Source: an uncultured Gemmatimonadales bacterium (GTDB lineage: Bacteria; Gemmatimonadota; Gemmatimonadetes; Gemmatimonadales; Gemmatimonadaceae). Taken from it: a DNA stretch of 64,000 nt. A program made the position numbers and the translations under genes. The notes beneath the pieces are model-generated. The model was not told where the DNA came from, did not search any database, and worked only from the letters and a program-made list of their open reading frames with translations. Position 1 is the stretch's first letter. The number at the start of each line of letters is the position of its first letter. The stretch covers positions 4,064,001 through 4,128,000 of the forward strand of contig OY969695.1 in the NCBI GenBank assembly GCA_963701965.1. Direction: 5' to 3'. Shown here in pieces: positions 47,771 to 64,000 of this stretch.

Positions 47771-48609
47771 GAGCGCTTCCGCGCCGTCGGCAGGCAGTCC
47801 TCGCCGGTGAAGTCCGGCGGGACATTGGGTTTGACCCGCACACTCTTGGCCGGGATCCCCACGTTGACGTGGTATGGCCGCACGTCCTTCGTAGCCACGG
47901 CCAGGGCGCCGACCATGCCTTGGCAGTTCACATGCACGCCGGCCAGAACCGTCGCGTGATACGTGATGCGCACGCCGTCATCGAGGCGGGTCACGGCGTT
48001 GGTGACGTCGCGGCCATCGACGATGCTGTGGGTGTGCGAATAGATGTTCGCATAATCGCTGATCGACACGTTGTTCCCGAGGATGATCCCCCCGCGATCA
48101 TCGAGGAGCACGTGCCGGTGGACGACGACGTTGTCGCCGATCTCCAGGTTGTAACCGAACGTGAACTCGACGTGCTGAAACGCCTTGAAGTTCTCTCCTA
48201 CGCGCTTGAAGATGTACGGCGCCAGCAATCGCCGGAGCCGGATACCGAGGTCCACGTTCTGGCCGCCGAGCGGGGTGCGGTCGAACGAATACCACAGCCA
48301 CAGCAGCGGCTTCACGGCGTTGAACCGGATCTCATCGCACTCGGCGTAGTACTCGGGTTCCAGCGTGACGTTGCGCGGATCGCACACCGAGAGCGCCAGC
48401 CGGGTCGCCAGCGGCACCGTCACATCCTGAACGGCCGTGTCGTAGTTATCCGAGTATGCCGGATACAGGAGATCGACCAGCGTGCGGCGGCACAGCACGT
48501 TCCGATCGGTGGACGGCTCGCTCAGCATCGCCGCGATCGCGCCGAGCCAAGTCTCTACGAGCTGTTTCGACGGGCGATCGGGGAGCGTACGCAGGGGGAG
48601 GAACGCCAT
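47767..48609 (-). CDS. Hexapeptide-repeat acyltransferase
   Basis: IGDNVVV / LGNNVSI repeats, ATKDV and GIPAK. Confidence 0.85.
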   Translation of the reverse strand: MAFLPLRTLPDRPSKQLVETWLGAIAAMLSEPSTDRNVLCRRTLVDLLYPAYSDNYDTAVQDVTVPLATRLALSVCDPRNVTLEPEYYAECDEIRFNAVKPLLWLWYSFDRTPLGGQNVDLGIRLRRLLAPYIFKRVGENFKAFQHVEFTFGYNLEIGDNVVVHRHVLLDDRGGIILGNNVSISDYANIYSHTHSIVDGRDVTNAVTRLDDGVRITYHATVLAGVHVNCQGMVGALAVATKDVRPYHVNVGIPAKSVRVKPNVPPDFTGEDCLPTARKRS

Positions 48610-48624
48610 CCCGCAAGATAACGG

Positions 48625-49236
48625 CTAGCGTTCGACCAGGGCGACGATGGCCTCGGCCAGCTCGTGCCGTCCCGATCCGGTCACGGCGCTGAAAGAAATC
48701 ACCTGGTCGGCGTCCAGCGCCAAGTCGCGGGCCAGCGCCGCGACGCGCGCCGCGGCGGCGGTCGCGCTCAGCTTGTCGATCTTGGTCACGACGATGATCG
48801 TGGGGAAGGCGCCTTCGGCCAGGAAGTCGAGCATCTGGCGGTCGTCGTCGCTGGGCTCGCGCCGGACGTCGAGCAGCTGGACGACGCCGGCCGGCGCCGG
48901 GCTGCCCCGCAGGTAGCCTTCAATGAGCGGCCGCCACGACGACCGTTGCTCCTTGGAGACCCGGGCGTAGCCGTAGCCGGGCAGGTCCGCCACCACGAAT
49001 TGGCCGTTGACGCGAAAGAAGTTGATCTCCCGCGTCCGGCCCGGCGTGTTGCTGGTGCGCGCCAGTTTCTTGCGCCGCACGAGGCGATTGAGGAGCGACG
49101 ATTTGCCGACATTGGACCGCCCGGCGAAGGCGATCTCCGGCAGTTCGGGCGGCGGTCGCCACCCGCCGGGGGAAGCCATCCCGCCAATGAATTCGAGCGC
49201 GCGGATCGGGAGCGGGTCGCTCCCCGAATCGCTCAG
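48625..49236 (-). CDS. engB: Ribosome biogenesis GTPase EngB/YihA/YsxC
   Basis: [19 protein letters not shown] and TKIDK. Start uncertain: first ATG is 49179, CTG at 49236 overlaps the lon stop. Confidence 0.92.
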
Positions 49237-51638
49237 TGGGTCACCGTGCCCGGCGCCGGCAGCGCGACCGCCCGCCGCGGAGCGGGTTGCCGCGCCGCCG
49301 GCGGCTCCGGCGCCGGACGCAAGGCCACGTGCAACACCTCGTCCATCGACTTGACCGTGTGAAACGTCGCCGCGGCCCGCACTTCCGCCGGCAACTCCTC
49401 GATCTCGCGCGCATTGCCGTGGGGCACGATCAGGTGGCGGACGCCGGCGCGGTGGGCGGCGACGGATTTCTCCTTGAGGCCGCCAATGGGCAGCACGCGG
49501 CCGCGCAACGTGATCTCGCCGGTCATGGCGAGATCGCCGCGCACGGGGCGGCGGGTGAGCGCACTCACGATCGCGGTCGCGATGGCGATGCCGGCGCTGG
49601 GGCCGTCCTTGGGCGTGGCGCCCGCGGGAATGTGAACGTGGATGTCCCGGGTCCGATAGAAGTCACGGTCGAGACCCAGTTCCCGGGCGCGGCGCCGCGC
49701 ATAGCTCAACGCCGCCGACGCCGACTCCTTCATGACGTCCCCAAGGGTGCCGGTGAGCTGCAGCTTGCCGCGTCCCCGCACGACGGTGACCTCGATATCG
49801 AGCGTCTCGCCGCCCACCGACGTATAGGCGAGCCCCCGGGCGACACCCACGACGTCCTCGAAGGAGAGATCGTCCGGATCGAAAGGCGCGGGGCCCAACA
49901 GCGCTTTCAGCTCGGTGCCGCGCACCGTGACGGGCGCGGTCGAATGGGTCTCGGCGCGGCGCCGGGCCAGCTTGCGCGCCACGCGCGCGATGCGCCGGTC
50001 GAGGTCGCGCACGCCGGCTTCGCGCGTGTATCCGCGCAGAATGCCCGGCAGCGCATCGGGTTCCCACGTCACGGCGTCGGCCGGCAGGCCGTTGCGCGAC
50101 AGCTGGCGCGGCACGAGGAACTGACGCGCGATGGCCAGCTTCTCGTGGTCCAGATACCCGGAGAGGCGCAACACTTCCATCCGATCGCGCAGCGGCTCGG
50201 GAATGGTGGCCAGCGAGTTCGCGGTCGTGATGAACAACACCTGCGACAGATCGTAGTCGAGCTCGAGGTAGTGATCGTTGAAGGCGCGGTTCTGCTCGGG
50301 ATCGAGCACCTCGAGCAGCGCCGCCGCCGGATCTCCGCGATAGTCGGCCCCGAGCTTGTCGATCTCGTCGAGCAGGATGACGGGGTTCACGACTTCGGCG
50401 CGTTTCATGGCCTGCAGGATCCGCCCGGGGAGCGCGCCAATGTACGTGCGCCGGTGACCGCGAATCTCGGCCTCGTCGCGCACGCCGCCCAGCGACATCC
50501 GGACGAATTTCCGGCCCAATGCCCGGGCGACGGACTGGCCCAGCAATGTCTTGCCAACGCCGGGAGGTCCGACGAGACAGAGAATGGGACCGTCCAGTCG
50601 TCCGACGAGCGCCAACACGGCGATGTAGTCCAGAATGCGGTCCTTGACGTCGTCGAGACCGTAGTGATCCACATCGAGCACCGCCCGGGCGTGCTCGACG
50701 TCGAGCACATCGTCCGTGCGCGCCGTCCACGGGAGCGCCATGAGCCAGTCGAGGTAGTTGCGCCCCACGGTCGACTCGGGCGACATCGGCGCCGTGCGCC
50801 GCAGCTTCCGGAGCTCGCGCCGCGCGCGCGCCGCCACCGGCTCGGGCAATCCGCGGCGCGTGATCTCGGTGTCGAGCTCGGCGAGATCGTCGCCTTCCTC
50901 TTGTCCGAGCTCACGGTTGATGGCCCGGAGCTGCTCCTGCAGGTAGAACTCGCGCTGGTTCTGGAACAGCGAGCCGCGGACGTCGTCGTCGATCTTCCGC
51001 TCCAGGCGCAGCAGCTCGATCTCGGCGCCGAGGACGCGAATCAACGCGGCCCACAGATCCCCGACGGCCGGGATCTCGAGGAGCGCTTGTTTGGCGTCGT
51101 GCCGCAGGATGAGGTGCGCCGCGATCGCCATCGCGCGCCGCTCGTCGGAGTCGATGGCCTGGACCAGCGCGACGACTTCGTCCGGAATGCGGCAATGCAG
51201 CGAGACGTACTCCTCGAAGCGCCCCATGGCTTGCCGGCTCTCGGCCTCCGGCGTGACGCCGATCAGCGGGGCCGGGGCGACAATGGCGCGCAGCAAACGC
51301 GCGGTCGGCATGTAGCGCGTCACGCGGGCGCGGGCGATGCCCTCGACGAGGACCTTGGCCGTGCCGCTGGGCAGGCGCGCGAACTGGAGAATGCGCGCGA
51401 CGATGCCGACCCGATAGAGGTCCGCCGCCGTGGGATCCTGGATCTCGCCGTTCTCCTGCGCGACCAGCAGGACGAAGTGATCCTTGGCCACCGCCGCTTC
51501 GACCGCCGCCAACGAGGCGGGCCGGCCGACCAGCAGCGGGATCACCACATGGGGAAAGACGACGACTTCACGCAACGGGAGTACGGGAAGCCGATCCTCG
51601 GTTGTGACGGGCTCGCCGTCACGCGCGAAGGTGGGAAC
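49233..51638 (-). CDS. lon: Lon protease
   Basis: [26 protein letters not shown] and PKDGPSAG. Start uncertain (GTT 51638 or TTG 51575). Confidence 0.96.
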
Positions 51639-52894
51639 TACGCCTCCTTCTTCTGCCGCTTGGGTGCGATCTCCAGCAGCGGCGGTGCAGCGTTGGTCAC
51701 CGTGGACTCGATGACCTTGACCTCGACGACGTCATCGCGACTCGGCAGGTCGAACATGATCTCGGTCAGCATCTCCTCGAGGATCGCCCGCAAGCCCCGG
51801 GCGCCGGTGCCGCGCTTGAGCGCTTTGTTGGCGATCGCCTTGAGCGCGCTCTCCTCGAACGTGAGCTTGACCTCCTCGAGGTCGAACAGCTTGGCGTACT
51901 GTTTCGTGAGCGCGTTCTTCGGCTCTTTCAGAATGCGGACGAGGGACTCTTCGTCGAGGGCTTCGAGCGGCACCGACACGGGGAGCCGGCCGACGAGCTC
52001 GGGGATGAGTCCGTACCGCAGGAGATCGTCGGGCTCGACGTCGGCGAACGGATTCTTGATCACGCGCTTGGCGTGAAGACCCAACGCGTCTTCCTTCGCG
52101 AATCCGATCTGCTTCCGGCCCGTGCGGGCCTCGATGATCTTCTCCAACCCGTCGAACGCGCCACCGCAGATAAACAGGATGTCCTTGGTGTTGATCTGGA
52201 TGTATTCCTGTTGCGGATGCTTCCGGCCGCCCTGCGGCGGGACGGAGGCCACGGTGCCTTCGAGGATCTTGAGGAGCGCCTGCTGCACGCCTTCGCCGGA
52301 GACGTCCCGCGTGATGCTGGGGTTCTCCGATTTGCGGGCGATCTTGTCGATCTCGTCAATGTAAACGATTCCGCGCTCACACTCGGCGACGTTGAAGTCG
52401 CCGGCCTGCAGCAACCGCACGAGAATGTTCTCGACGTCTTCACCGACGTACCCGGCCTCGGTGAGCGTCGTGGCGTCGGCGATCGTGAACGGCACATCCA
52501 GTATGCGGGCCAACGTCTGCGCCAGCAGGGTCTTCCCCACGCCGGTCGGCCCGATCAACAGGATGTTGGACTTGTCCAGCTCGACCTCGTCATCGCGCAA
52601 CGAGGCGGAATTGATGCGCTTATAGTGATTGTAGACGGCAACGGCCAGCGCTTTCTTCGCCCGCTCCTGCCCGATCACATATTGGTCCAGAACGTCCTTT
52701 ATTTCCTGGGGCGACGGGACCTGGGTGATCGCCTCCGCGACTTCGCGCTCCTCGTCCTCGGCGAGAATCTCGTTGCAGAGCGCAATGCACTCGTTGCAAA
52801 TGTAGACGGACGGTCCGGAAATGAACTTCCGCACCGAATCCTTGGACTTTCCGCAGAACGAGCAACGGAGGTGTTTGTCGTGGGACATGGGCAT
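51638..52894 (-). CDS. clpX: ATP-dependent Clp protease ATP-binding subunit
   Basis: CSFCGK zinc finger, [14 protein letters not shown] and IGF loop. Confidence 0.98.
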
Positions 52895-52991
52895 CCAATG
52901 GAGGCTGCCGAGAACTAACAGCCGTGCCGGAACGGGTCAAGCAGAGCGCAACCTGGCGTTTTCCTATAATAACAGTGCGGCGCCCGCGGCT

Positions 52992-53009
52992 ATGTGAATC
53001 CCTTCACAA
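52992..53009. promoter_or_regulatory. Palindromic operator ATGTGAA-TCCC-TTCACAA (Rex-like or CRP-like) upstream of clpX
   Basis: Perfect TGTGA-N6-TCACA, and one mismatch from TTGTGAA-N4-TTCACAA; lies in an AT-rich intergenic stretch. Confidence 0.55.
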
Positions 53010-53034
53010 ACACCGTGTGCGCCGCATCACGTAA

Positions 53035-53306
53035 AGCTCCGCGTCGCGGAGCTCAGTTCAACCGACTGCGACTAGCGGGTGCGTTTTTCAGCACCCTGCT
53101 AGAGCTCCGCGTCGCGGAGCTCAGTTCAACCGAGTGCGACTAGCGGGTGCGTTTTTCAGCACCCTGCTAGAGCTCCGCCCAGCGGAGCTCAGTTCAACCG
53201 AGTGCGACTAGCGGGTGCGTTTTTCAGCACCCTGCTAGAGCTCCGCCCAGCGGAGCTCAGTTCAACCGACTGCGACTAGCGGGTGCGTTTTTCAGCACCC
53301 TGCTAG
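53035..53306. repeat. Tandem array of four 68-bp double-hairpin units, same family as 14026-14289
   Basis: Units at 53035, 53103, 53171 and 53239: AGCTCCGC-(GTC/CCA)-GCGGAGCT, CAGTTCAACCGA(C/G)TGCGA, CTAGCGGGTGC-GTTTTTCA-GCACCCTGCTAG. Confidence 0.97.
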
Positions 53307-53314
53307 TGGCTAAG

Positions 53315-53944
53315 TCATGCTGTGACGGTGGGTTGTTTCGACGTTTCGACGACTTCGCCGCGTTGCGCGACGATATTGTCGATCAGTCCGTACGACTTGG
53401 CTTCCTCGGCGGACATGTGGTAGTCGCGCACGATGTCCCGCTCGATCTGCTCGACCGGACGGCCCGTGTGCTTCGACATGAGATCGTTCATCTTGGAGCG
53501 AAGGTACAGGATCTCCCGCGCCTGGATCTCGATATCGGCCGCCGTGCCCTGCGCGCCGCCCGAAGGCTGGTGGATCATGATGCGCGAGTGCGGCAGCGCC
53601 GAGCGGCGGCCCTTGCGGCCCGCTGCCAGCAGGAAGGCGCCCATGCTGGCCGCGATGCCCATGCACGTGGTATTCACCGGACTCCGGAGATACTGCATCG
53701 TATCGTAGATCGCGAGCCCGGCCGAGACGCTCCCGCCAGGGGAATTGATGTACAGATAGATGTCGCGGTCCGGATTGTCCGCGTCCAGAAACAGCAGCTG
53801 CGCGATGATGATGTTCGCGACGTCGTCGTTGATCGGCGTCCCGAGGAAAACAATGCGGTCCATGAGGAGCCGCGAGAAGATGTCGTACGTGCGCTCGCCG
53901 CGGCTGGACCGCTCAATGACGTACGGAGGATAGATCGTTGCCAT
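53315..53944 (-). CDS. clpP: ATP-dependent Clp protease proteolytic subunit
   Basis: DIFSRL..DRI, YINSPGG, AASMG and MIHQP. Confidence 0.97.
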
Positions 53945-54025
53945 ACTGGCCTCGGTTGGACTAGGCAATGCTGTGTGTAAATCTACGTGCCGGGTCAGGT
54001 GCTCTTGCTCCCAGGTGCTCACGCC

Positions 54026-55276
54026 TCAGGCGCCGTCGCTGACGGTATTCCGCTCCAGCAGCCACTTAAAGACCTTGTCCTCCGTAATGGCGCGCTCGAT
54101 TTCGCGGAGCCGCCCCGCTTTCTGGAGCGAGGCGTACACTTCGCCCGGGCTCGCCTTGCGCTTGCTGGCCGTCTCGGCGATCCGATCGTCGAGCTCCGCT
54201 TCCGTCGCCGAGAGTTTCTCCCGCTCGGCGACCGTATCAATGATGAGATCGCGGCGCACCTGCCGCTCGGCCATCGCCTTGAACTCGGTCGAGAAGCGTC
54301 CCCGATCTTCCTCGGGAATCTGATACGCGCTGGCATAGGCATCGACGAGCTGCGCGACCCAGCTCGGCGGCACGTCGAACGGATTGGCGCTGGCGATCTC
54401 ATCGAGCAGCTTCTGCCGCACGGCCGCGTCCGCGTCGCGCACGGCGTGCTCCTCGAGGTCGTTGCGCACGGTCTGCCGCAGGGCGCCGAGCGAGTCGAAA
54501 TCGCCGACTTCCCGCGCGAAGGCATCGTCGAGTGGTGGCAATGCTTTGCGCTTGACGTCCTGCAGGGTCACGCGCACGGGCTTCGTCTTGCCGCGCTGGG
54601 CCTCGTCGGGGAAATCGTCCGGCCACTTGACCGGGCGCTCGACCGTCTGTCCAGGCCGGGCTTCCATGATGAGCTCTTCGATACCCGCAATGGCCTGGGA
54701 GCCGCCCAGCACGAGCCGATATTCCTTGCCGGCGTCGACAATGGCGCCCGAATCGTCGGCGGTCGCCAGCAGCACGGTCACCATGTCGCCGGGCTTGGGC
54801 AGATCCTCGACCGGCGACCACGAGGCGCGCTGGTCGCGCATCTGCTCGATCTGCTCCGTGACATCATCGTCCCGGATGGGGCGCGAGGGCCGGTCCACGC
54901 GGAATCCGGACACACGGGGCAGGGGAATCTCCGGCCGAACCTCCAGGTGCAGCTCGAACGTCAGGGGCTGCCCCTCGGCGAACTTGACGTCATGCACGTG
55001 GGGCTGAGCGGCGGGCTTGAGCTGCTCGCGCTCCAGGGCCTGCTTCGCCGCCTCCTGGACCAACGTCTCGATCGCCTGCTGGCGGATGGCGTCGCCAAAT
55101 CGCTTCCGCACCATGGCGGCGGGTGCCTTTCCGGGCCGGAATCCCGGCAGCCGCACCTTGGTGGCGTATTGCTGCGCGGCCGATTGCTCGGCGACCCGGA
55201 CGTCGTCGGCGGGTACCGAGACTTCCAGCAGCCGCTCCACTCCGGTCGTTTTCTTCGCCGTGACCTGGATGTTCAT
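54026..55276 (-). CDS. tig: Trigger factor
   Basis: PGFRPGKAP signature; lies upstream of clpP-clpX-lon. Confidence 0.95.
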   Translation of the reverse strand: MNIQVTAKKTTGVERLLEVSVPADDVRVAEQSAAQQYATKVRLPGFRPGKAPAAMVRKRFGDAIRQQAIETLVQEAAKQALEREQLKPAAQPHVHDVKFAEGQPLTFELHLEVRPEIPLPRVSGFRVDRPSRPIRDDDVTEQIEQMRDQRASWSPVEDLPKPGDMVTVLLATADDSGAIVDAGKEYRLVLGGSQAIAGIEELIMEARPGQTVERPVKWPDDFPDEAQRGKTKPVRVTLQDVKRKALPPLDDAFAREVGDFDSLGALRQTVRNDLEEHAVRDADAAVRQKLLDEIASANPFDVPPSWVAQLVDAYASAYQIPEEDRGRFSTEFKAMAERQVRRDLIIDTVAEREKLSATEAELDDRIAETASKRKASPGEVYASLQKAGRLREIERAITEDKVFKWLLERNTVSDGA

Positions 55277-55285
55277 AGGGGAATA

Positions 55286-57278
55286 TTAATTGGGCGCAAT
55301 GCCCAGCGCCCGATACACATCGGTCGCGCGGTACAAGACGCCGCCCCGGACGGTCAGTTCGACTTTTCGAATGTCTCCAATGTGCGCCAAGGGGTTGCCG
55401 TCGACCAAGAATGACGTCCGCTTGCTTGCCTTCGGTGATGGACCCGCGTTCCGCGTCGTGATGCATGATGCGGGCGGATCCGATCGTCGCCAGTTGGAGA
55501 ATGGCCGGTGCCGGAATGCCGGCCTCGGCGTACAGCTCGAGCTCGCAATGATACAGGAATCCGGCGAGGCCATCGGTACCGGCGACAATGGGGATACCGG
55601 CGCGGTACGCTTCTCCCACCATCCGAACCATGGCCGCGTAGGACTGGCGATAGCGCTCATCCAGCCCCGGTGGGACCGGGAGTCCGCCGCCGTACAGGCC
55701 GCGACGCACCTGGGCTGGCAGTCGCGCCGCGATGGGCGAGAAGCTCCGGGAGAGCACCCGTGGCCGGCCGACGAACATGTCCTCGAAGGCGCCGAGGGTC
55801 GGATCGAGATCGGTGCCTCGTGCTTTGAGTAATCGCAGGAAGCTTTGGACGCGCTCGGACTGCAAGTCGAGGGCGGCGCCGCTGGCGGCGACCGCGGTAA
55901 ATCGCGACATCGCGCGGGTGTCACGGACGGTGTCCATGAAGTTGAGCATCAGGAAATTCGCGTGCTGCAGCTCGTCGAATCCCAGCCGCACGACTTGCTC
56001 GGCGGTCATGAAGGCGGGCACGTGGCCGCTGACGCGCAGGCCATGGCAATGTGCTTCATCGATGATGGCGGGGACGAGCTCGGGCTTCATCGAGCTATAG
56101 ATCTTGATCTGCTCGAACCCGAGCGCGGCGTACCGGTCGACTGCGGCACGCCCCTCGGCTTCCGTGGACGCCAACATACCGATGGGTACCTGATACGGGC
56201 CGGGCGAGTCAATGAGGCCGGCCAGCACCACGCGCGGGCCGATCAACTCACCCGCATCGAACTGGCGGCGTAGGCGCAGCACGTTCGCGGTGTCGTTGCC
56301 CATGTCGCGACCAGTCGTGACGCCGGCCGCGATATCCAGCATGCCTTCCGTGCCCGGCTGAATGTGGACGTGCATGTCCCACAGGCCCGGTAGCAGCATC
56401 TTGCCGGTCGCGTCGATCACGGTGGCGCCCGGCGGCGCGACCACCGCTCCGTCCTCTCCCACGCGCTCGATGCGGTCGCCGCGGATGACGACCGTGGTCC
56501 GAGGGCGCGCCTGCGCGGTGATGGCGTCGAACAGGGCCGCGTGCTGGAACACGAGGATCGCGGGATGCTGGGCCAGCGATCGCGCGACGCGCGTCAGGCG
56601 CGCCGACTCCACGCTGTCCTGCGCGGCGATCATGGCCGGCACGGCCTTCTCCCATCCCGTCCGGATCGTGCTCGACCACGAGGACACGGTCCCGAAGAAC
56701 CGCTCCTCTTCGTCGAGCCAGATCGGCGCGGGGTCAAACCCGAGTCCCGTGACGGTCCACAGCACGACCGTCTGGGAACGCCCTTTCGCCTCCACGGCGA
56801 GCGACCGCACGCGCTCGATGTGCGCCTCACCAGCCGGCAGCAGCGGCAGGGTATGCGCGGGTGCCGCCACGAGCGCCTGAGCCAAGGCGGCCGAGGGCGC
56901 GCCGGCAACGTCAATGTAGTAGCCGGGCCGCGCCGGTTGTTCCTGGTCGCCTTCCACGTTGTTCGACCAGCGCATCGTCCGGCCGTCCGTCGAGAATCGT
57001 TCGTCGACGGTGTCCTTGAGATAGTCGTGCCCTTCGATGGCCACCAGGCGCGGAGTGCCACCGGCGCCGGCGATCACATGCTCGCGCACCTGGGGCCCCC
57101 GCCCCCGATCGTTGAACTGGTAATCCGCCCACCATTCCGCGCGCGTGCCCCAGATCGAGAGGGCGCCGGCCGGCCGGTCCGAGAACAGGACGGTGTAACG
57201 CAGGGTGTCGCCGGTCGACTGGGCGGACAGGCGCGCCGCGAGACTCAGGAGGCTTAGGAGGAGCGACAGACGGGTCAT
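55286..57278 (-). CDS. Secreted amidohydrolase-family protein; apparent +1 frameshift near the C-terminus
   Basis: Signal peptide, PGLWDMHVH, IKIY, GHVP, AGTD and GK.AD; after removing one base at GAATG 55409-55413 it continues LVDGNPL to the stop at 55286. Confidence 0.88.
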
Positions 57279-57279
57279 A

Positions 57280-57307
57280 TGCTCGGGGGAAGGATTCGAA
57301 CCTGCAC
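57280..57307 (-). other. Diverged copy of the tRNA-Leu 3' end (att-like scar)
   Basis: GTGCAGGTTCGAATCCTTCCCCCGAGCA versus GTGCGGGTTCGAGTCCCGCCCCGAGCA in the tRNA at 58520-58546, same orientation. Confidence 0.75.
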
Positions 57308-57413
57308 TGGGTGACAGGTCGCTGACGCCGCGTGGCACATATCTATAAGGCGAGCGCGACATCTGCCATCATGCGGTGATCGGGCGAAAGGACCACGGAT
57401 TGATGGGTGCTTC

Positions 57414-58256
57414 ATGACGATTGCTGTCGTACTCAAGGTTGGCGACGGGCTGATACTCGGTGCTGACAGCGCGGTGACTCTTACTGGCAGCAAGGGAGTA
57501 ACGAACGGCTACTTCAACGCTGAAAAGATCTTCCGTCTTGGGCGAGACTTAAGGGTCGGGGGCGTGACGTACGGCCTCGGTCAACTTGGCGGGCGGTCCA
57601 TCACGAGCTTGGCGAAGGATCTTAAGGCTCTGATGTCCGCGAACGAGCAGCCCTGGAGTGCATCGCCGACCACGTACACGATTGAGGAAATCGCCACCAA
57701 GCTTCGCCGCTTCTACTACGAGGACCGCTATCGAGCGGAGTACGCGCCAAGGTCGCTCGATACGGGCAAGTACCCCGGCCTGGGATTTTTCATCGGAGGC
57801 TATTCAGCGAATGCCGAACATCCGGAGGTTTGGCGGGTCGAGGTTGACGAGAACGGTAACTGCGACGCACCTGTCCGGGTTATCGATAGTGACAAAGTCG
57901 GTGCCCTGTGGGCCGGTCAGCCGGAAGCGCTGAACAGACTGATGAATGGGTATTCGGGTGCGGTTCTCGAGGGGCTCGTCCAATCGGGCGCGCCGCTGGA
58001 TGAAGCGTTTAAGTTTCTAAGGTCTCTGCCCGTGACCCACCTTTCAGCCGCTGCGATGCCGATACAAGATGCGATCGACCTCGTCAAATACATGGTCGAG
58101 GTGACGGCCGGTTTTGTTAGGTTTGCGCCCGGACCTAAGACCGTGCATCCTCCTACGGACGTAGCGGCCATCACGCGACACGAGGGGTTCTGTTGGGTGC
58201 AGCGCAAGCATTATTTCAACCGCGAACTCAACCCGAGCTTTGGAACTCAATGGTGA
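57414..58256 (+). CDS. Stand-alone proteasome beta-subunit-like (Ntn-hydrolase fold) protein
   Basis: M-T1...GLILGA-D17-S, EKIF and GVTYG; A/T-richer codon usage than flanking genes. Confidence 0.7.
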   Translation: MTIAVVLKVGDGLILGADSAVTLTGSKGVTNGYFNAEKIFRLGRDLRVGGVTYGLGQLGGRSITSLAKDLKALMSANEQPWSASPTTYTIEEIATKLRRFYYEDRYRAEYAPRSLDTGKYPGLGFFIGGYSANAEHPEVWRVEVDENGNCDAPVRVIDSDKVGALWAGQPEALNRLMNGYSGAVLEGLVQSGAPLDEAFKFLRSLPVTHLSAAAMPIQDAIDLVKYMVEVTAGFVRFAPGPKTVHPPTDVAAITRHEGFCWVQRKHYFNRELNPSFGTQW

Positions 58257-58431
58257 AATGACAGTCACCGTGCACAGCATTCCCACGGATACACCGAACC
58301 TGCCGGGATACACATATCCCCCGCCGAGCATCGATCGAGGACAGACGGGCCCGGAACTTCATCCGACCCCAGCGCCGCTTTCGCGCGAAACGGTCGAACG
58401 GTTGCGCGAATCCCTCCGGCAGCGCGCCTAG
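58240..58431 (+). CDS. Small Pro-rich hypothetical protein (57-63 aa)
   Basis: ATG at 58258 follows the upstream TGA by 1 nt; short ORF with no recognisable motif. Confidence 0.4.
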   Translation: MELNGEMTVTVHSIPTDTPNLPGYTYPPPSIDRGQTGPELHPTPAPLSRETVERLRESLRQRA

Positions 58432-58519
58432 GCGATCTCCTAGCCTGACTGGTTAGGGCTGCGCGGCCACGCCGATGGGCCGCGGTGGCGCGGCGGTGCA
58501 AAGCGTTGCGGCACAACAA

Positions 58520-58601
58520 TGCTCGGGGCGGGACTCGAACCCGCACGTCTTGCGACACGGGATCCTAAGTCCCGCGCGTCTACCAATTCCGCCACCCGAG
58601 C
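58520..58601 (-). tRNA. tRNA-Leu (anticodon TAG), CCA not encoded
   Basis: GCTCGGG acceptor stem, GGCGGAATTGGTAGACGC D-arm, CGGGA-CTTAGGA-TCCCG anticodon arm, long variable arm, GGTTCGAGTCC. Confidence 0.97.
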
Positions 58602-58604
58602 GAC

Positions 58605-58635
58605 AAAAAAGGGGCGCTGCCGAAGCAGCGCCCCT
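58605..58635 (-). terminator. Intrinsic terminator downstream of htrA
   Basis: GGGGCGCTGC-TTCG-GCAGCGCCCC followed by TTTTTT on the minus strand. Confidence 0.85.
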
Positions 58636-58665
58636 GAATACTAGCGAAATCGGGCTGGACCCGCG

Positions 58666-60207
58666 CTACTCACCAATGCGCAGGCTCACCACGTGGCCGA
58701 TCGGCCCCTGTTGGGTCGGGGAGTAGACGAGCAGGGACACGTAGTCGCCGTTCTTGGTGTTGGACAACGCGGCCTGCAGGTCGCTCAAGGTGTGCACCAC
58801 CTTCTTTGGCTGCGGATACAGCACCTGGGCGATGATGTCGTTCGGGTTGAGCTTCCCGCGCGCCGGGCCATTGACGTTCACCTCCGTCACCTGCAGCCCA
58901 CGGTCCTCGCTCGGCAGGTTGTTATCCTGCGCGAACTGCGCGCTCACCGGCTCGACGGAAACGCCCAGCTTTTCGGTGCTCTCACCCGCTGACGGTTTGC
59001 TGCCGGCCGGACTGTTGTCCGCGACCTGCTCCTCCTGCGGCGCCTCCATGAGCTTGACCGTGAACGTCTTCTTCTGGCCAAAGCGCATGACCTCCAGCGT
59101 CACCGTCTGTCCGGGCTCGTGCGACCGAATGATCCGCTGCAACGCGCTGACCCGGTCCACCGGCTTCCCATCGGCCCCGACGATGATGTCGCCGACTTCC
59201 AGGCCCGCCTTCTGCGCGGGGCTCGAACCATCGGACGGCGTGAAGCCGTTGACCTTGGCCCCACCGATCGTCTTGAGGCCCGCCGCGCCGGCGTCGTCCG
59301 GCTCCACGGGATTGATCGCGATGCCGATCACCGCACGGCGCACCTTGCCGTACTTGATGATGTCCTCCATCACGCTCTTGGCCAGCGTGATCGGAATGGC
59401 GAATCCGTACCCCGAGTAGTAGCCCGTCGGGCTCGCGATCGCGCTGTTGATGCCGATCACGTTGCCCTGGCCATCGACCAGCGGACCACCAGAGTTGCCC
59501 GGATTGATCGCCGCATCGGTCTGCAGGAAATCCGACACCGCGTACGCCGACGGCAGCAACCCTTGCAGGTCCGCCCCGCCGCGCCCCTTGGCGCTCAGGA
59601 TGCCCGCCGTGACCGTCTCCCGCAGGCCCAGCGGATTGCCGATCGCCAGCACCCACTCGCCAACTTTCGCGGCGTTATCATCGCCTAGCGCAACGGTGGG
59701 AAGATCCGTCGCGTCGATCTTGATCACCGCGACGTCCGTCGTCGGGTCGCGACCCACCACGTGCGCCTTGAAGACCCGCTGGTCGTCGAGCGCCACCGTC
59801 ACCCGGTCCGCATCGGCGACGACGTGATTGTTGGTCAGGATGTAGCCGTCTTTCGTGACAATGAACCCCGACCCGCTCGCTTCCTGCGGCTCGACACGCT
59901 GCGGGCCAAACTGCTGAAAGAAATCCTCGAGTCCGGGCGGCACCCGGCCCCGCTGCCGTGGCCCGGTCATGAGCTTCGCGTCGCGCTGCGTCGTGATCGA
60001 CACGACCGCCGGCGTCACGTGCTCGGAGATGGAGACGAACGAGTTACTGAAGTCCGCGACCGGACGCGTGTCCTGGGCCGGTGGCTTCGAAGGAGTCTGC
60101 GCGAAGCTCTTGTGCGTCAGGTCGAAGGCAGAGGCGAAGATGAGGCCGCCGGCAAACGCCCCGACGATCGCACCGCCAATCCGCGCTCGGGCGATCAATG
60201 GTGGCAT
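58666..60207 (-). CDS. HtrA/DegP serine protease with PDZ domains
   Basis: GSGF, TNNHV, D.AVIK and TDAAINPGNSGGPL, plus two PDZ-like regions. Confidence 0.95.
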   Translation of the reverse strand: MPPLIARARIGGAIVGAFAGGLIFASAFDLTHKSFAQTPSKPPAQDTRPVADFSNSFVSISEHVTPAVVSITTQRDAKLMTGPRQRGRVPPGLEDFFQQFGPQRVEPQEASGSGFIVTKDGYILTNNHVVADADRVTVALDDQRVFKAHVVGRDPTTDVAVIKIDATDLPTVALGDDNAAKVGEWVLAIGNPLGLRETVTAGILSAKGRGGADLQGLLPSAYAVSDFLQTDAAINPGNSGGPLVDGQGNVIGINSAIASPTGYYSGYGFAIPITLAKSVMEDIIKYGKVRRAVIGIAINPVEPDDAGAAGLKTIGGAKVNGFTPSDGSSPAQKAGLEVGDIIVGADGKPVDRVSALQRIIRSHEPGQTVTLEVMRFGQKKTFTVKLMEAPQEEQVADNSPAGSKPSAGESTEKLGVSVEPVSAQFAQDNNLPSEDRGLQVTEVNVNGPARGKLNPNDIIAQVLYPQPKKVVHTLSDLQAALSNTKNGDYVSLLVYSPTQQGPIGHVVSLRIGE

Positions 60208-60295
60208 GCAGTCTAATCCATGGTCTGAGGGTTACTCTAATCTACACTTCCCGGACGCGCGTGTTTCGCGTCCGGGAAGCACACCGTATTCATGA

Positions 60296-60322
60296 GACGC
60301 GTCAGACGCGCCAGCGGTTTAC
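60296..60322 (-). promoter_or_regulatory. Putative ECF promoter GTAAAC-N17-CGTC upstream of htrA
   Basis: Same AAC-N17-CGT geometry as the other two sites. Confidence 0.45.
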
Positions 60323-60329
60323 CAATTTC

Positions 60330-62267
60330 TTACTTCTTGTCGTCCACGATCTCATAGTCCGCCTCGACAACGTCGTCGGGCTTGCCGCCAGTGCCCGCCG
60401 CCGGCTCCTGAGCGCCCGTGGTCGGGCCACCCGTCGGACCGCCGCTCGCGGCACCCTGCTGCTGGTACAGCGACTGGCCCGCCTCGCTGTACGCCTTCGA
60501 GAGCTCTTCCTGCGCCGACCGGATCTCGGCCGCGTCCGAGCCCCGCAACGCTTTCCGCGAGCGCTCGATGGAACTCTCGAGCCTCGTCTTGAGCTCCGGC
60601 GAGAGACGGTCTGACCACTCCTTGGCGTTCTTCTCCACCTCGTAGGTCATCCCATCCAACCGGTTCCGTGCGTCGATCTCCTCGCGCCGCTTCTTGTCAT
60701 CGGCCGCGTTCGACGCCGCGTCCTTCACCATCCGGTCGATCTCGGCGTCCGACAACCCACTCGACGCCTCGATCCGGATCTTCTGTTCTTTGCCCGTGGT
60801 CTTGTCGCGAGCCGCCACGTGCAAAATGCCGTTGGCGTCGATGTCGAACGTCACCTCGACCTGCGGCATCCCCCGCGGAGCGGGCGGAATGCCCGTCAGC
60901 TGGAACTTGCCGATCGTCTTGTTGTACTGCGCCAACTCGCGCTCGCCCTGCAATACGTGAATCTCGACCGTCGTCTGGTTGTCATCGGCCGTCGAGAACG
61001 TCTCCGTCTTCTTGGTCGGAATCGTCGTGTTCTTGGGGATGAGCACGGTCGTCACACCGCCCAACGTCTCGATGCCCAGCGACAGCGGCGTCACGTCGAG
61101 GAGCAGCACGTCCTTCTGCTCGCCCGTGAGCACCGCGCCCTGGACTGCCGCGCCGATGGCCACGACTTCGTCCGGGTTGACGCTCCGGTTCGGCTCCTTC
61201 CCGAAGAACCCCTTCACGACCTCCTGCACCTTGGGCATGCGCGTCTGGCCGCCGACGAGGATGACTTCGTCGATCTCGTTCGGCTTGAGCCCGGCGTCTT
61301 TCAACGCCTGCTCCATCGGCGCGAGCGTGCGCTTGATCAGGTCATCGACCAACTGCTCCAGCTTGGCCCGGCTCAACGTGTAGTTGAGGTGCTTCGGGCC
61401 GCTCTGGTCGGCCGTGATGAACGGCAAATTGATGTCGGTCGACGGCGCCGAGGACAGCTCCATCTTGGCCTTTTCCGCGGCCTCTTTGAGCCGCTGCAGC
61501 GCCATGGGGTCCTTCGACAGGTCGATCGCCTGGTCGCGCTTGAACTCACCCACGAGCCAGTCGATCACGCGCTGGTCGAAGTCGTCGCCACCCAGGTGCG
61601 TGTCGCCATTCGTCGACTTGACCTCGAACTGCCGCGACCCGTCGACGTCATACAACTCCAACACCGAGATGTCGTACGTGCCGCCGCCCAGGTCGAACAC
61701 CGCGACTTTTTCGTCCTTTTTCTTGTCGAGACCGTAGGCCAACGCCGCCGCCGTGGGCTCGTTGATAATGCGCAGCACATCGAGCCCGGCGATCTTGCCC
61801 GCGTCCTTCGTCGCCTGCCGCTGCGAATCATTGAAGTAGGCCGGTACCGTGACCACGGCCTTCTCCACCTTGTGACCCAGATAGTCCTCAGCGGTCTGCT
61901 TCATCTTTTGCAGGATCATCGCTGAGATTTCAGGGGGCGTATACCGCTTGCCCTGCACCTCGACCACGCCCATGTCGTTGGGACCGGCGACGACCTTGTA
62001 CGGGACACGCTTAATCTCATCCTGCACTTCGGACAGCTTGCGCCCCATGAAGCGCTTGATCGAGAATACGGTGTTCTGCGGGTTCGTCACCGCCTGCCGC
62101 TTCGCGATCTGGCCGACGAGCCGCTCGCCGTCCTTGGTAAAGGCGACGACCGACGGCGTCGTCCGGCCGCCTTCCGCGTTTGGAATTACGACGGGGTCGC
62201 CGCCTTCCATGACCGCCACCACGGAATTCGTCGTCCCGAGGTCAATCCCAATAACTTTGTCTGCCAT
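60330..62267 (-). CDS. dnaK: Chaperone DnaK
   Basis: [31 protein letters not shown] and acidic tail. Confidence 0.98.
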
Positions 62268-62309
62268 TGAACCCCTCTGATGTTGTCTGGATACTGACGT
62301 CGACCCCAA

Positions 62310-62325
62310 AGCAAACGAGAGGCCG
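62310..62325 (-). promoter_or_regulatory. Possible sigma-54-type promoter for dnaK (CGGC-N7-TTGCT)
   Basis: GG-N10-GC spacing with a consensus TTGCT -12 element; GCCA-N3-TGGC palindrome at 62335-62345 just upstream. Confidence 0.35.
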
Positions 62326-62360
62326 GGGATTTCGGCCAATCTGGCAGCTATCGAGGCAGT

Positions 62361-63113
62361 ATGATCCCGCTAGGGGATGACACTCCGACAGTGCGCACGC
62401 CGATCGCGACCTACACCCTGATCGCGATCTGCTTTCTCGTATGGATCCTCTACCAGGGAGCCGGTTTCGATCCCGTCCGCCTGGCGACGACGGTGTGCAA
62501 TACGGGCATGGTTCCGGGCGAGTTGACCCACCTAGCCCCACTAGGAAAGTCCGTGCCGCTTGGCCACGGAATGACCTGCCTCGTTGACAACGACCGCATC
62601 AATATCCTGACGCCCTTCATCTCGATGTTCCTGCACGGCAGTTGGCTGCACATCCTCGCCAACATGCTGTACCTGCTGGTGTTCGGCCGGGCGGTCGAAG
62701 ACAGCATGGGTCGTCTCCGGTTCATCGTCTTCTATTTGATCTGCGGTCTGGTGGCGGCCGCGACCCACATTCTGTTCAACGCCGAGTCGGCGGTCCCCAC
62801 TGTCGGGGCATCAGGCGCGATCTCCGGCGTGATGGGCGCCTACCTCGTGCTCTACCCGCGCGCCTGGGTCCGGATGTTTTTCATCATCTTCGTTGTCCGG
62901 TTCCCGGCCTGGCTGGTGCTCTTGTGGTGGTTCCTGACCGAAGCCTTGGGGGGCCTCGCCCAGCTCAACGAAATCAACCCCGGCGCCTCCAGCGGGGTGG
63001 CCGTGTGGGCCCATATCGGGGGGTTCATCGCCGGCGCCGCGCTGGCCAAATTCTTCGTAAAGGCTTCGCTAGTTCGCACCCGGACCGATCGCGTCCGGCT
63101 GCGGACTATATAG
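62361..63113 (+). CDS. Rhomboid intramembrane serine protease
   Basis: SMFLHG..LH...[10 protein letters not shown] and AHIGGF. Confidence 0.93.
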
Positions 63114-63117
63114 ATTC

Positions 63118-63858
63118 GTGCCCGTGCCTGACCTTCCGCGAGGGGTCGTCTTCCGCGCCGAGGCGGGCCGACTCGGCGACTGGATCGACCACACACTGCT
63201 CCGGGCGGAAGCGACCGCCTCGGATATCGACCGGCTTTGCGCCGAGGCCGCGACGCACCGGCTCGCCGCGGTCTGCGTAAACCCCCAATGGGTCGCCCGA
63301 TGTCGAGAGGCGCTCGACCGTACGGGGGTTGCCGTCGCGACCGTCGTCGGGTTTCCCCTCGGCGCCAGCGCCACCGCGGCAAAAGCCGCCGAGGCGGCCG
63401 ATGCGGTCGATCATGGTGCGGATGAGCTCGATATGGTTGTATCGATCGGGGCGATCCGCGACGCCGATTGGCAATACGTCGAGCACGATATACATGAGGT
63501 CGTTGAAGCGGCATCGGGCGCCCTCATGAAAGTTATTGTAGAGTCCGCAGTCCTGACGCCGACCGAGATCGTGCGGACCTGCCGTGCCGCCCGCGACGCC
63601 GGTGCACACTACGTAAAGACAAGTACCGGCATGCACGCCGCGGGCGGCGCCACGACGGCGGCCGTTGCGCTCATGCGCCTCGCCGTCGGCGACGCCATGG
63701 GCGTCAAGGCATCCGGCGGGATACGGGACTGTACGGCGGCATTCGCGCTCATCGAGAGCGGCGCGACGCGCATTGGCACATCGAACGGCGTTGCGTTGGC
63801 GGACTGTGTCGGGCCGGCGCCCAAGCCGGTCTGCGAACTATTTGGGAGATGGCAATGA
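63118..63858 (+). CDS. deoC: Deoxyribose-phosphate aldolase
   Basis: IDHTLL, GFPLG, ELDMV, KVIVE, VKTSTG, KASGGIR and RIGTS. Confidence 0.95.
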
Positions 63859-64000
63859 CCACCGTGGACACCGCGACAGCGCAGCCCACTCATTTTCTGA
63901 ACCGCGAGCTGAGCTGGCTCGAGTTCAACGCCCGTGTACTCAGCGAAGCGTTCGACGAGCGCAATCCCCTGCTCGAGCGGCTCAAGTTCCTGGCGATCTT
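63855..64000 (+). CDS. ppk1: Polyphosphate kinase 1, 5' part (runs off the window)
   Basis: Manual translation gives [31 protein letters not shown]. Confidence 0.93.

Follow-up and report, generated by a model that had tools for sequence, protein, structure and literature searches.

Identity of the enzyme at the tRNA-Leu gene

What is the protein encoded by a gene next to a tRNA-Leu gene in the window (the whole stretch of 64,000 nt analysed here), and does it work alone? An earlier note on this DNA had proposed an orphan protein of the Ntn (proteasome-beta) fold, horizontally acquired and a candidate for an undescribed system. The 280-aa ORF it pointed to, starting with MTIAV, is real; it spans 57414–58256 (+) and has no propeptide, and its Thr2, Asp18 and Lys38 correspond to positions 1, 17 and 37 of the mature protein. 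The Asp of the GADS motif is where it had been placed, at mature position 17. The catalytic Lys had been expected at 33; it is the Lys of EKIF, at mature position 37 in all 144 rows of the alignment. Across these rows the first catalytic position is Thr in 140 and Ser in 4, the second is Asp in 143 and Glu in one, and the third is always Lys. Given this invariant triad we take the enzyme to be active, as far as sequence can tell.

The predicted fold was borne out by an AlphaFold (AF2) model computed from the 144 rows (pLDDT 94, pTM 0.90), which shows the sandwich with an N-terminal nucleophile of the proteasome-like (Ntn) family. Foldseek gave 500 matches to this model at E ≤ 0.001, the best being a proteasome beta subunit (1PMA, E 3.5e-9). 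Anbu and proteasome beta subunits came out best in structural alignments, tied within 1 Z (20.2–19.3), with residue 2 of the model aligned to chain residue 1 of both, and from the fold match the triad residues would be expected to cluster in space. The likeness to Anbu (PDB 5LOY; Z 20.2, rmsd 3.3, 200 residues aligned) extends to the lack of a propeptide and of an ATPase partner, whereas sequence identity is 14%, a conserved larger operon is missing and the model has no long C-terminal coiled-coil helix H5, with no helix of four or more residues after strand 258–263. The 20S beta subunit and HslV (Z 14.1) share the fold and the catalytic centre; unlike them, the enzyme matches no family model, lacks a propeptide and has no alpha subunit or HslU at hand. 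Neither of these, nor a Pup ligase or an Anbu partner, was recognised among the ORFs at 48000–64000 of the window, and no alpha subunit or HslU recurred among 211 genes neighbouring the homologs.

Family assignment and distribution

At E ≤ 1 the enzyme matched no Pfam or NCBIfam family, PADLOC gave no match, and the single protein found no PDB entry by sequence, while a profile of the enzyme reached proteasome beta1 at E 0.055. Among the PHROGs only phrog_5990 (427 positions, function not annotated) matched, over residues 214–276 (E 7e-17), and in a protein-cluster atlas the enzyme falls only into unnamed clusters, one of which has PF00227 in 15% of its members. The family is in fact already catalogued in silico as PMI, a name that stands for a proteasome homolog carrying multiple insertions, in a survey that lists 22 new prokaryotic proteasome homologs without function (Fuchs, Alva and Lupas, 2021; PMC8665760, cited here from the available part of its text). 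There, PMI-3 and PMI-4 are defined by a long insertion after H2, PMI-5 and PMI-6 by an S3/S4 insertion and PMI-2 by an H3/H4 insertion. In our model H1 and H2 are kept (63–75 and 90–109), the loop after H2 has only 13 residues (110–122), and the S3/S4 region is only about 4 residues longer and non-helical. Two extra helices (182–190 and 195–204) lie between helices 171–178 and 217–237 and make up an H3/H4 insertion at about residues 180–215. With this insertion present and the other two absent, the enzyme is most likely a PMI-2, an assignment made from the architecture of the model and by elimination rather than with the authors' profiles. PMI-2 as catalogued likewise has a proteasome core with Thr1/Asp17/Lys, no propeptide and a patchy occurrence in bacteria and Euryarchaeota.

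Searches yielded 572 homologs of near-equal length and, by profile, 5184 representatives at E ≤ 0.001; plasmid and phage collections held 5 and 2 weak partial matches, respectively. The 80 genome loci that were kept out of 291 come from many bacterial phyla and from archaea, including, by record titles, Proteobacteria, Firmicutes, Actinobacteria, Bacteroidetes, PVC and Euryarchaeota. The enzyme also matched 102 viral stretches, many of which encode a form of ~430 aa, that of phrog_5990, which is probably PMI-4. This long form (L098–L160) is common in prophage contigs and has its own partners of 45–70 aa, without the aromatic motif described below; no toxin gene was seen among the listed third-gene candidates behind it. 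At L032 (likely identical to G386) and L090 the enzyme gene is apparently split into two frames, and the partner at L032 is intact. Among proteins of 546–2000 aa we found no fusions of the enzyme, which we regard as weak evidence.

The islet and its insertion site

Distribution and context agree with the horizontal acquisition that had been suggested. The enzyme occurs in 4 of 61 relatives and, at E ≤ 1e-5, in 20 of 401 genomes of the phylum, five of them close. Its gene has a GC content of 0.58 and a GC3 of 0.675, compared with 0.84–0.89 in six flanking genes, and it stands on the strand opposite to the amidohydrolase gene (55286–57278, −), the tRNA-Leu(TAG) gene (58520–58601, −) and degP, so that both the A/T-richer codons and the reversed orientation had been read correctly. 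In the genus relatives G001 and G005, tig directly follows tRNA-Leu, leaving an empty site, and in G003 the same tRNA-Leu(TAG) harbours an integrase element of ~5 kb with two HTH genes and its own att copy of 64 bp (86%) (L254, G003:C5:314500-323500). The empty and the occupied sites together indicate that this tRNA gene is an integration hotspot and that the islet was acquired; no integrase remains in the islet of the window. The reported duplication of the tRNA's 3′ end does exist, at 57279–57307 (−), directly abutting the start of the amidohydrolase gene, as a degenerate copy with 24 of 29 positions identical; no other non-self match within the window scores better (E 0.027), and the repeat search of the window did not list it. 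It is probably a decayed att site marking the boundary of the islet.

The amidohydrolase gene lies outside this copy. It is absent from the tRNA-Leu site in G001, G003 and G005 and found elsewhere in four of five genus relatives, which points to a separate arrival, and we rejected it as a member of the module since it is native elsewhere in the genus and has a GC3 of 0.84. Its frame is shifted between about 55407 and 55510, possibly by an assembly error or by decay; in G003 and G005 the frame is intact (664–666 aa), and G001 and G004 have long frames (764 and 798 aa). A functional link to tig-clpPX-lon was likewise rejected, because the site is empty in G001 and G005 and no such neighbours recur. 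A promoter search at the locus found no sigma-70-like promoter, and the sole terminator-like match on the plus strand falls within the ORF.

A small partner gene behind the enzyme

Contrary to the earlier note, the enzyme gene is not an orphan. One nucleotide behind its stop, inside the islet, begins an ORF of 57 aa (58258–58431, +) with a GC3 of 0.68, like that of the enzyme gene, and this partner is conserved in relatives. The 88 nt between it and tRNA-Leu hold no toxin gene; an 83-aa ORF at 58475 was rejected as a third gene because it overlaps the tRNA. The partner in the window has a Pro-rich N-terminal half with a G-Y-x-Y-P-x-P-S motif, followed by a PLS...ERLRE segment, which looks helical, and a basic tail.

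Taking as partner a same-strand ORF of 40–115 aa with a start score of at least 4, and counting distinct loci with at least 420 nt downstream (L090 and L165 omitted), we found one after the enzyme at 132 of 153 loci with the short form and 41 of 45 with the long form. Applied to other long ORFs, this rule was satisfied behind 65 of 486 at the same loci and behind 77 of 1086 across the window's own genome. The partner is under purifying selection (pooled pS 0.66, pN 0.18 over 30 close pairs). A profile built on 35 Gemmatimonadota-type partners had five matches at E < 1e-4 in the 401 genomes, all directly behind the enzyme and several of them members of the training alignment; four others, weaker at E 5e-4 to 7e-4, fall within long frames and seem to be chance hits. 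The profile was not found as a tail within stored proteins, and of the 36 partners scanned not one reached the cut-off of an antitoxin family, although a single partner gave a sub-threshold match to VapB (E 0.011). Near-obligate and fast-evolving as it is, the partner would be the likeliest substrate or inhibitor of the enzyme.

A [YF]x[YF] motif occurs in 34 of 145 partners, compared with a mean of 12 in shuffled sequences, and in none of the 39 long-form partners. At residues 25–30, a range chosen after looking at the data, it is present in 7 of 25 partners linked to a toxin gene (see below) and 13 of 58 without one, compared with about 1 in shuffles; in the clade of the window it stands nearer the start, at residue 18 in the window's partner. 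The partners are Pro-rich beside this motif, as might suit a ligase that cleaves the partner in front of a Pro and attaches the N-terminal fragment to another protein as a tag. Such a reaction would resemble that of connectase, a proteasome homolog reported, in the part of the paper available, to act on one cognate substrate, at an Asp-Pro bond and without hydrolysing it (PMC7980362). Like connectase, our enzyme stands alone and, by analogy, would have a single cognate substrate. The residue after G168 is Gln or Glu in 113 of 144 rows; proteasome beta has Ser129 at the corresponding position. We nevertheless regard a ligase as improbable: the enzyme retains H1 and H2 and lacks the two-helix S3/S4 insertion, both unlike connectase, which is also a weaker structural match than the best ones (Z 12.2 vs 19–20), and a ligase would leave the coupling to toxin genes unexplained.

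At L219 (L219:1349-2266) and L245 (L245:2542-3549) the partner carries a fused domain of ~110 aa that contains a GWNxY motif, and behind it comes an unannotated gene of 119–137 aa; neither the fused partner nor the next gene matched Pfam or NCBIfam. At L234, which has no separate partner, a basic 47-aa tail of the enzyme might be a fused partner, but it scores no better than shuffles (47 vs a maximum of 51).

Toxin-like third genes in relatives

In 46 of 135 relatives a toxin-like third gene is coupled directly behind the partner, and the other 89 have the two-gene form. These figures derive from 142 distinct partners, of which 135 had at least 350 nt behind them, with 20 loci carrying a truncated or non-credible small ORF dropped. 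Twelve third genes scored above the Pfam cut-off, as PIN (L034, L190), PemK (L048, L051, L060, L069, L211), ParE-type (L057, L058) and Fic/Doc (L095, L097, L230). Seven more (five RelE-like, one PIN-like and one HEPN-like) are weak matches or were judged by eye, by motifs that we take to be typical of these toxins; the third gene of L071 matched at E about 0.002–0.003. A further 24 have a MazF fold and three have no class. The MazF-fold genes form an unannotated family whose member at L045 (L045:9140-9676) was modelled at pLDDT 91.7, and all listed Foldseek matches to this model are MazF/PemK (best E 3.4e-4). The family (111 homologs) shows the motifs LxQGD and SQSCDL; its predicted fold is that of MazF/PemK with insertions, and it corresponds to no named atlas cluster. 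Acidobacteria-type genes were placed in it by an alignment at about 20% identity, not by folding.

As a control, 469 other long ORFs of the same loci yielded 34 candidate third genes and no Pfam toxin family, a comparison that applies directly only to the 12 Pfam-confirmed genes, since there may be shadow frames among the control ORFs and Pfam has no model for the MazF-fold family. On a FastTree phylogeny of 141 enzymes, toxin-linked and unlinked loci interleave with 15 changes, sister tips carry different toxins, and 22 MazF-fold loci form one clade. None of 35 loci in the window's own clade (36 tips) has a third gene, so the toxin arm of the argument comes from relatives; as the window holds the minimal two-gene form, the strongest evidence lies with them too. 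Toxin-linked partners are longer than toxin-less ones (median 88 vs 61 aa) and have acidic rather than basic tails (mean charge −1.3 vs +1.7), and these acidic tails presumably resemble antitoxin C-termini. Since such tails recur before unrelated toxins, the fate of the partner seems to be what matters.

A possible protease-gated switch

The triad, the near-obligate partner and the repeated antitoxin-like tails lead us to favour, tentatively, a reading in which the enzyme cuts the antitoxin-like partner and the pair is a protease-gated switch of the toxin-antitoxin type, with a dedicated protease where toxin-antitoxin-chaperone systems have a chaperone. Removal of Met would free Thr1 as the nucleophile, and the aromatic-Pro module at the N-terminus of the partner would be seated in the active-site cleft. 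Upon a phage or stress cue the enzyme would cut and destroy the partner. In three-gene relatives the additional acidic C-terminal segment may be the antitoxin that neutralises the toxin encoded behind it (PIN, MazF, RelE/ParE or Doc), so that cutting would free the toxin and arrest the cell; in the two-gene form, with no toxin in cis, what is freed might be the enzyme itself or the basic C-terminal piece of the partner. By analogy and from gene context, anti-phage defence would be the likeliest purpose. Several observations sit poorly with this model: the aromatic motif is confined to a minority of partners, no scanned partner reached an antitoxin-family cut-off, the 22 MazF-fold loci amount to one clade, the clade of the window has no toxin, PADLOC has no match, and an entire enzyme clade with an intact triad has no partner.

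That clade (L068, L072, L079, L080, L235, L238, L243) comprises seven Alphaproteobacteria-type tips with support of 0.995, which keep Thr, Asp and Lys and have no credible partner; the enzyme can hence do without a partner and is not necessarily toxic, and the clade is a natural control for the partner's role. This would fit an accessory pair on mobile DNA, that is, a general peptidase working without ATP and a small protein that inhibits it or helps it assemble, to which toxin-antitoxin pairs became attached by tail fusion and over which the enzyme has no control. Most loci have no toxin, and other toxin-antitoxin genes lie near L025, L041, L051 and L076, as would also be expected from such attachment. 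We think it unlikely, however, because at least four Pfam toxin families and the MazF fold keep a constant position and orientation behind the partner, compared with none in the 469-ORF control, and the tree shows repeated gain or loss.

To return to the gated switch, a gene that stands in the enzyme's place at other loci tells both for and against it. MazF-fold genes without the enzyme had a TIGR04255 gene and a small ORF in front at six of nine loci inspected, five of them distinct, so the first slot appears to be an exchangeable module. These operons (L257, L258, L259/L260, L262, L265) are themselves candidates for a toxin-antitoxin system of three parts that is undescribed; literature searches on TIGR04255 gave no match. 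With a non-protease at this position, a chaperone role is as good a fit as cutting, and we presume that TIGR04255 may be SecB-like, a likeness unsupported by its profile, which matched nothing in the PDB.

The enzyme could then be a guardian, which binds or trims a destabilising N-terminal module of the partner and so keeps the antitoxin alive until a competitor or inhibitor from a phage causes antitoxin loss and toxin release. The pair in the window would be a toxin-less remnant, or would act on a toxin in trans. Toxin-antitoxin-chaperone systems (TACs: HigBAC, CmdTAC, MqsRAC) offer a precedent: in the available part of the report, they have three genes and exchangeable toxins, and a third protein handles a modular disordered extension of the antitoxin through aromatic residues (10.1101/2024.02.24.581848). 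The three-gene architecture with exchangeable toxins is shared by our relatives, and a frameshifted RelE-like gene at L070 looks like decay from three genes to two. Unlike in TACs, the first gene here encodes a Thr hydrolase of proteasome fold and not a SecB-like protein, the order is enzyme-partner-toxin, the extension is N-terminal whereas ChAD is C-terminal in described TACs, and most loci, the window included, have no toxin. The invariant triad also speaks against mere guarding, as does a two-gene majority whose partners are under purifying selection, unlike a remnant, and we give the guardian little credence.

The protease-gated switch can be stated more broadly: PMI proteins would serve as sensor-proteases in a class of toxin-antitoxin-protease defence systems that is widespread in bacteria, archaea and prophages but undescribed. 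They would recognise a portable N-terminal tag on the partner; this tag would have been grafted onto antitoxins that belong to five or more unrelated toxin families, with the two-gene form as the minimal switch. We consider this extension rather doubtful. If it held, one of the 22 families of proteasome homologs catalogued in 2021 would for the first time have a function and a natural substrate.

The feature is thus real and its family known in silico; the undescribed part is the operon of protease and small partner, with or without a toxin. In its available part, the text of PMC8665760 contains neither the small partner nor a toxin third gene, and it states that genomic contexts and co-occurrence patterns were not found for PMI. 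A search that lay outside most subscription journals and bioRxiv supplements turned up no publication in which PMI or proteasome-like proteins are connected with a small partner, with toxin-antitoxin genes or with phage defence; the words 'proteasome' and 'Ntn' do not occur in PMC13069673. With the partner as candidate substrate and a known toxin type as growth read-out, PMI function becomes directly testable. Known toxin-antitoxin systems use the housekeeping proteases ClpXP or Lon, or a SecB-like chaperone. If the enzyme gates an antitoxin, this would be a dedicated protease within a toxin-antitoxin operon, and the proteasome family would gain a connection to bacterial immunity. As happened with connectase, a protease or ligase that recognises a short portable tag might also become a tool.

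Genomic neighbourhoods of the homologs

The earlier note had called for a survey of the neighbourhoods of homologs for defence-island enrichment. Among the 211 neighbours scanned at loci L001–L080, defence and mobile-element genes were indeed common, as were many housekeeping genes; these are raw occurrences, not set against a background rate. Apart from the third genes, no large partner recurred, and a tRNA gene lies somewhere in 13 of 60 loci scanned. The neighbours include type I and other restriction-modification genes (L008, L009, L027, L030, L047, L073), integrases (L013, L022, L032, L035), prophage lysis genes (L015, L016, L024) and further conflict-type genes. At L030, from Archaeoglobaceae, the enzyme-partner pair lies inside a type I restriction-modification locus, between hsdR and hsdS and on the opposite strand.
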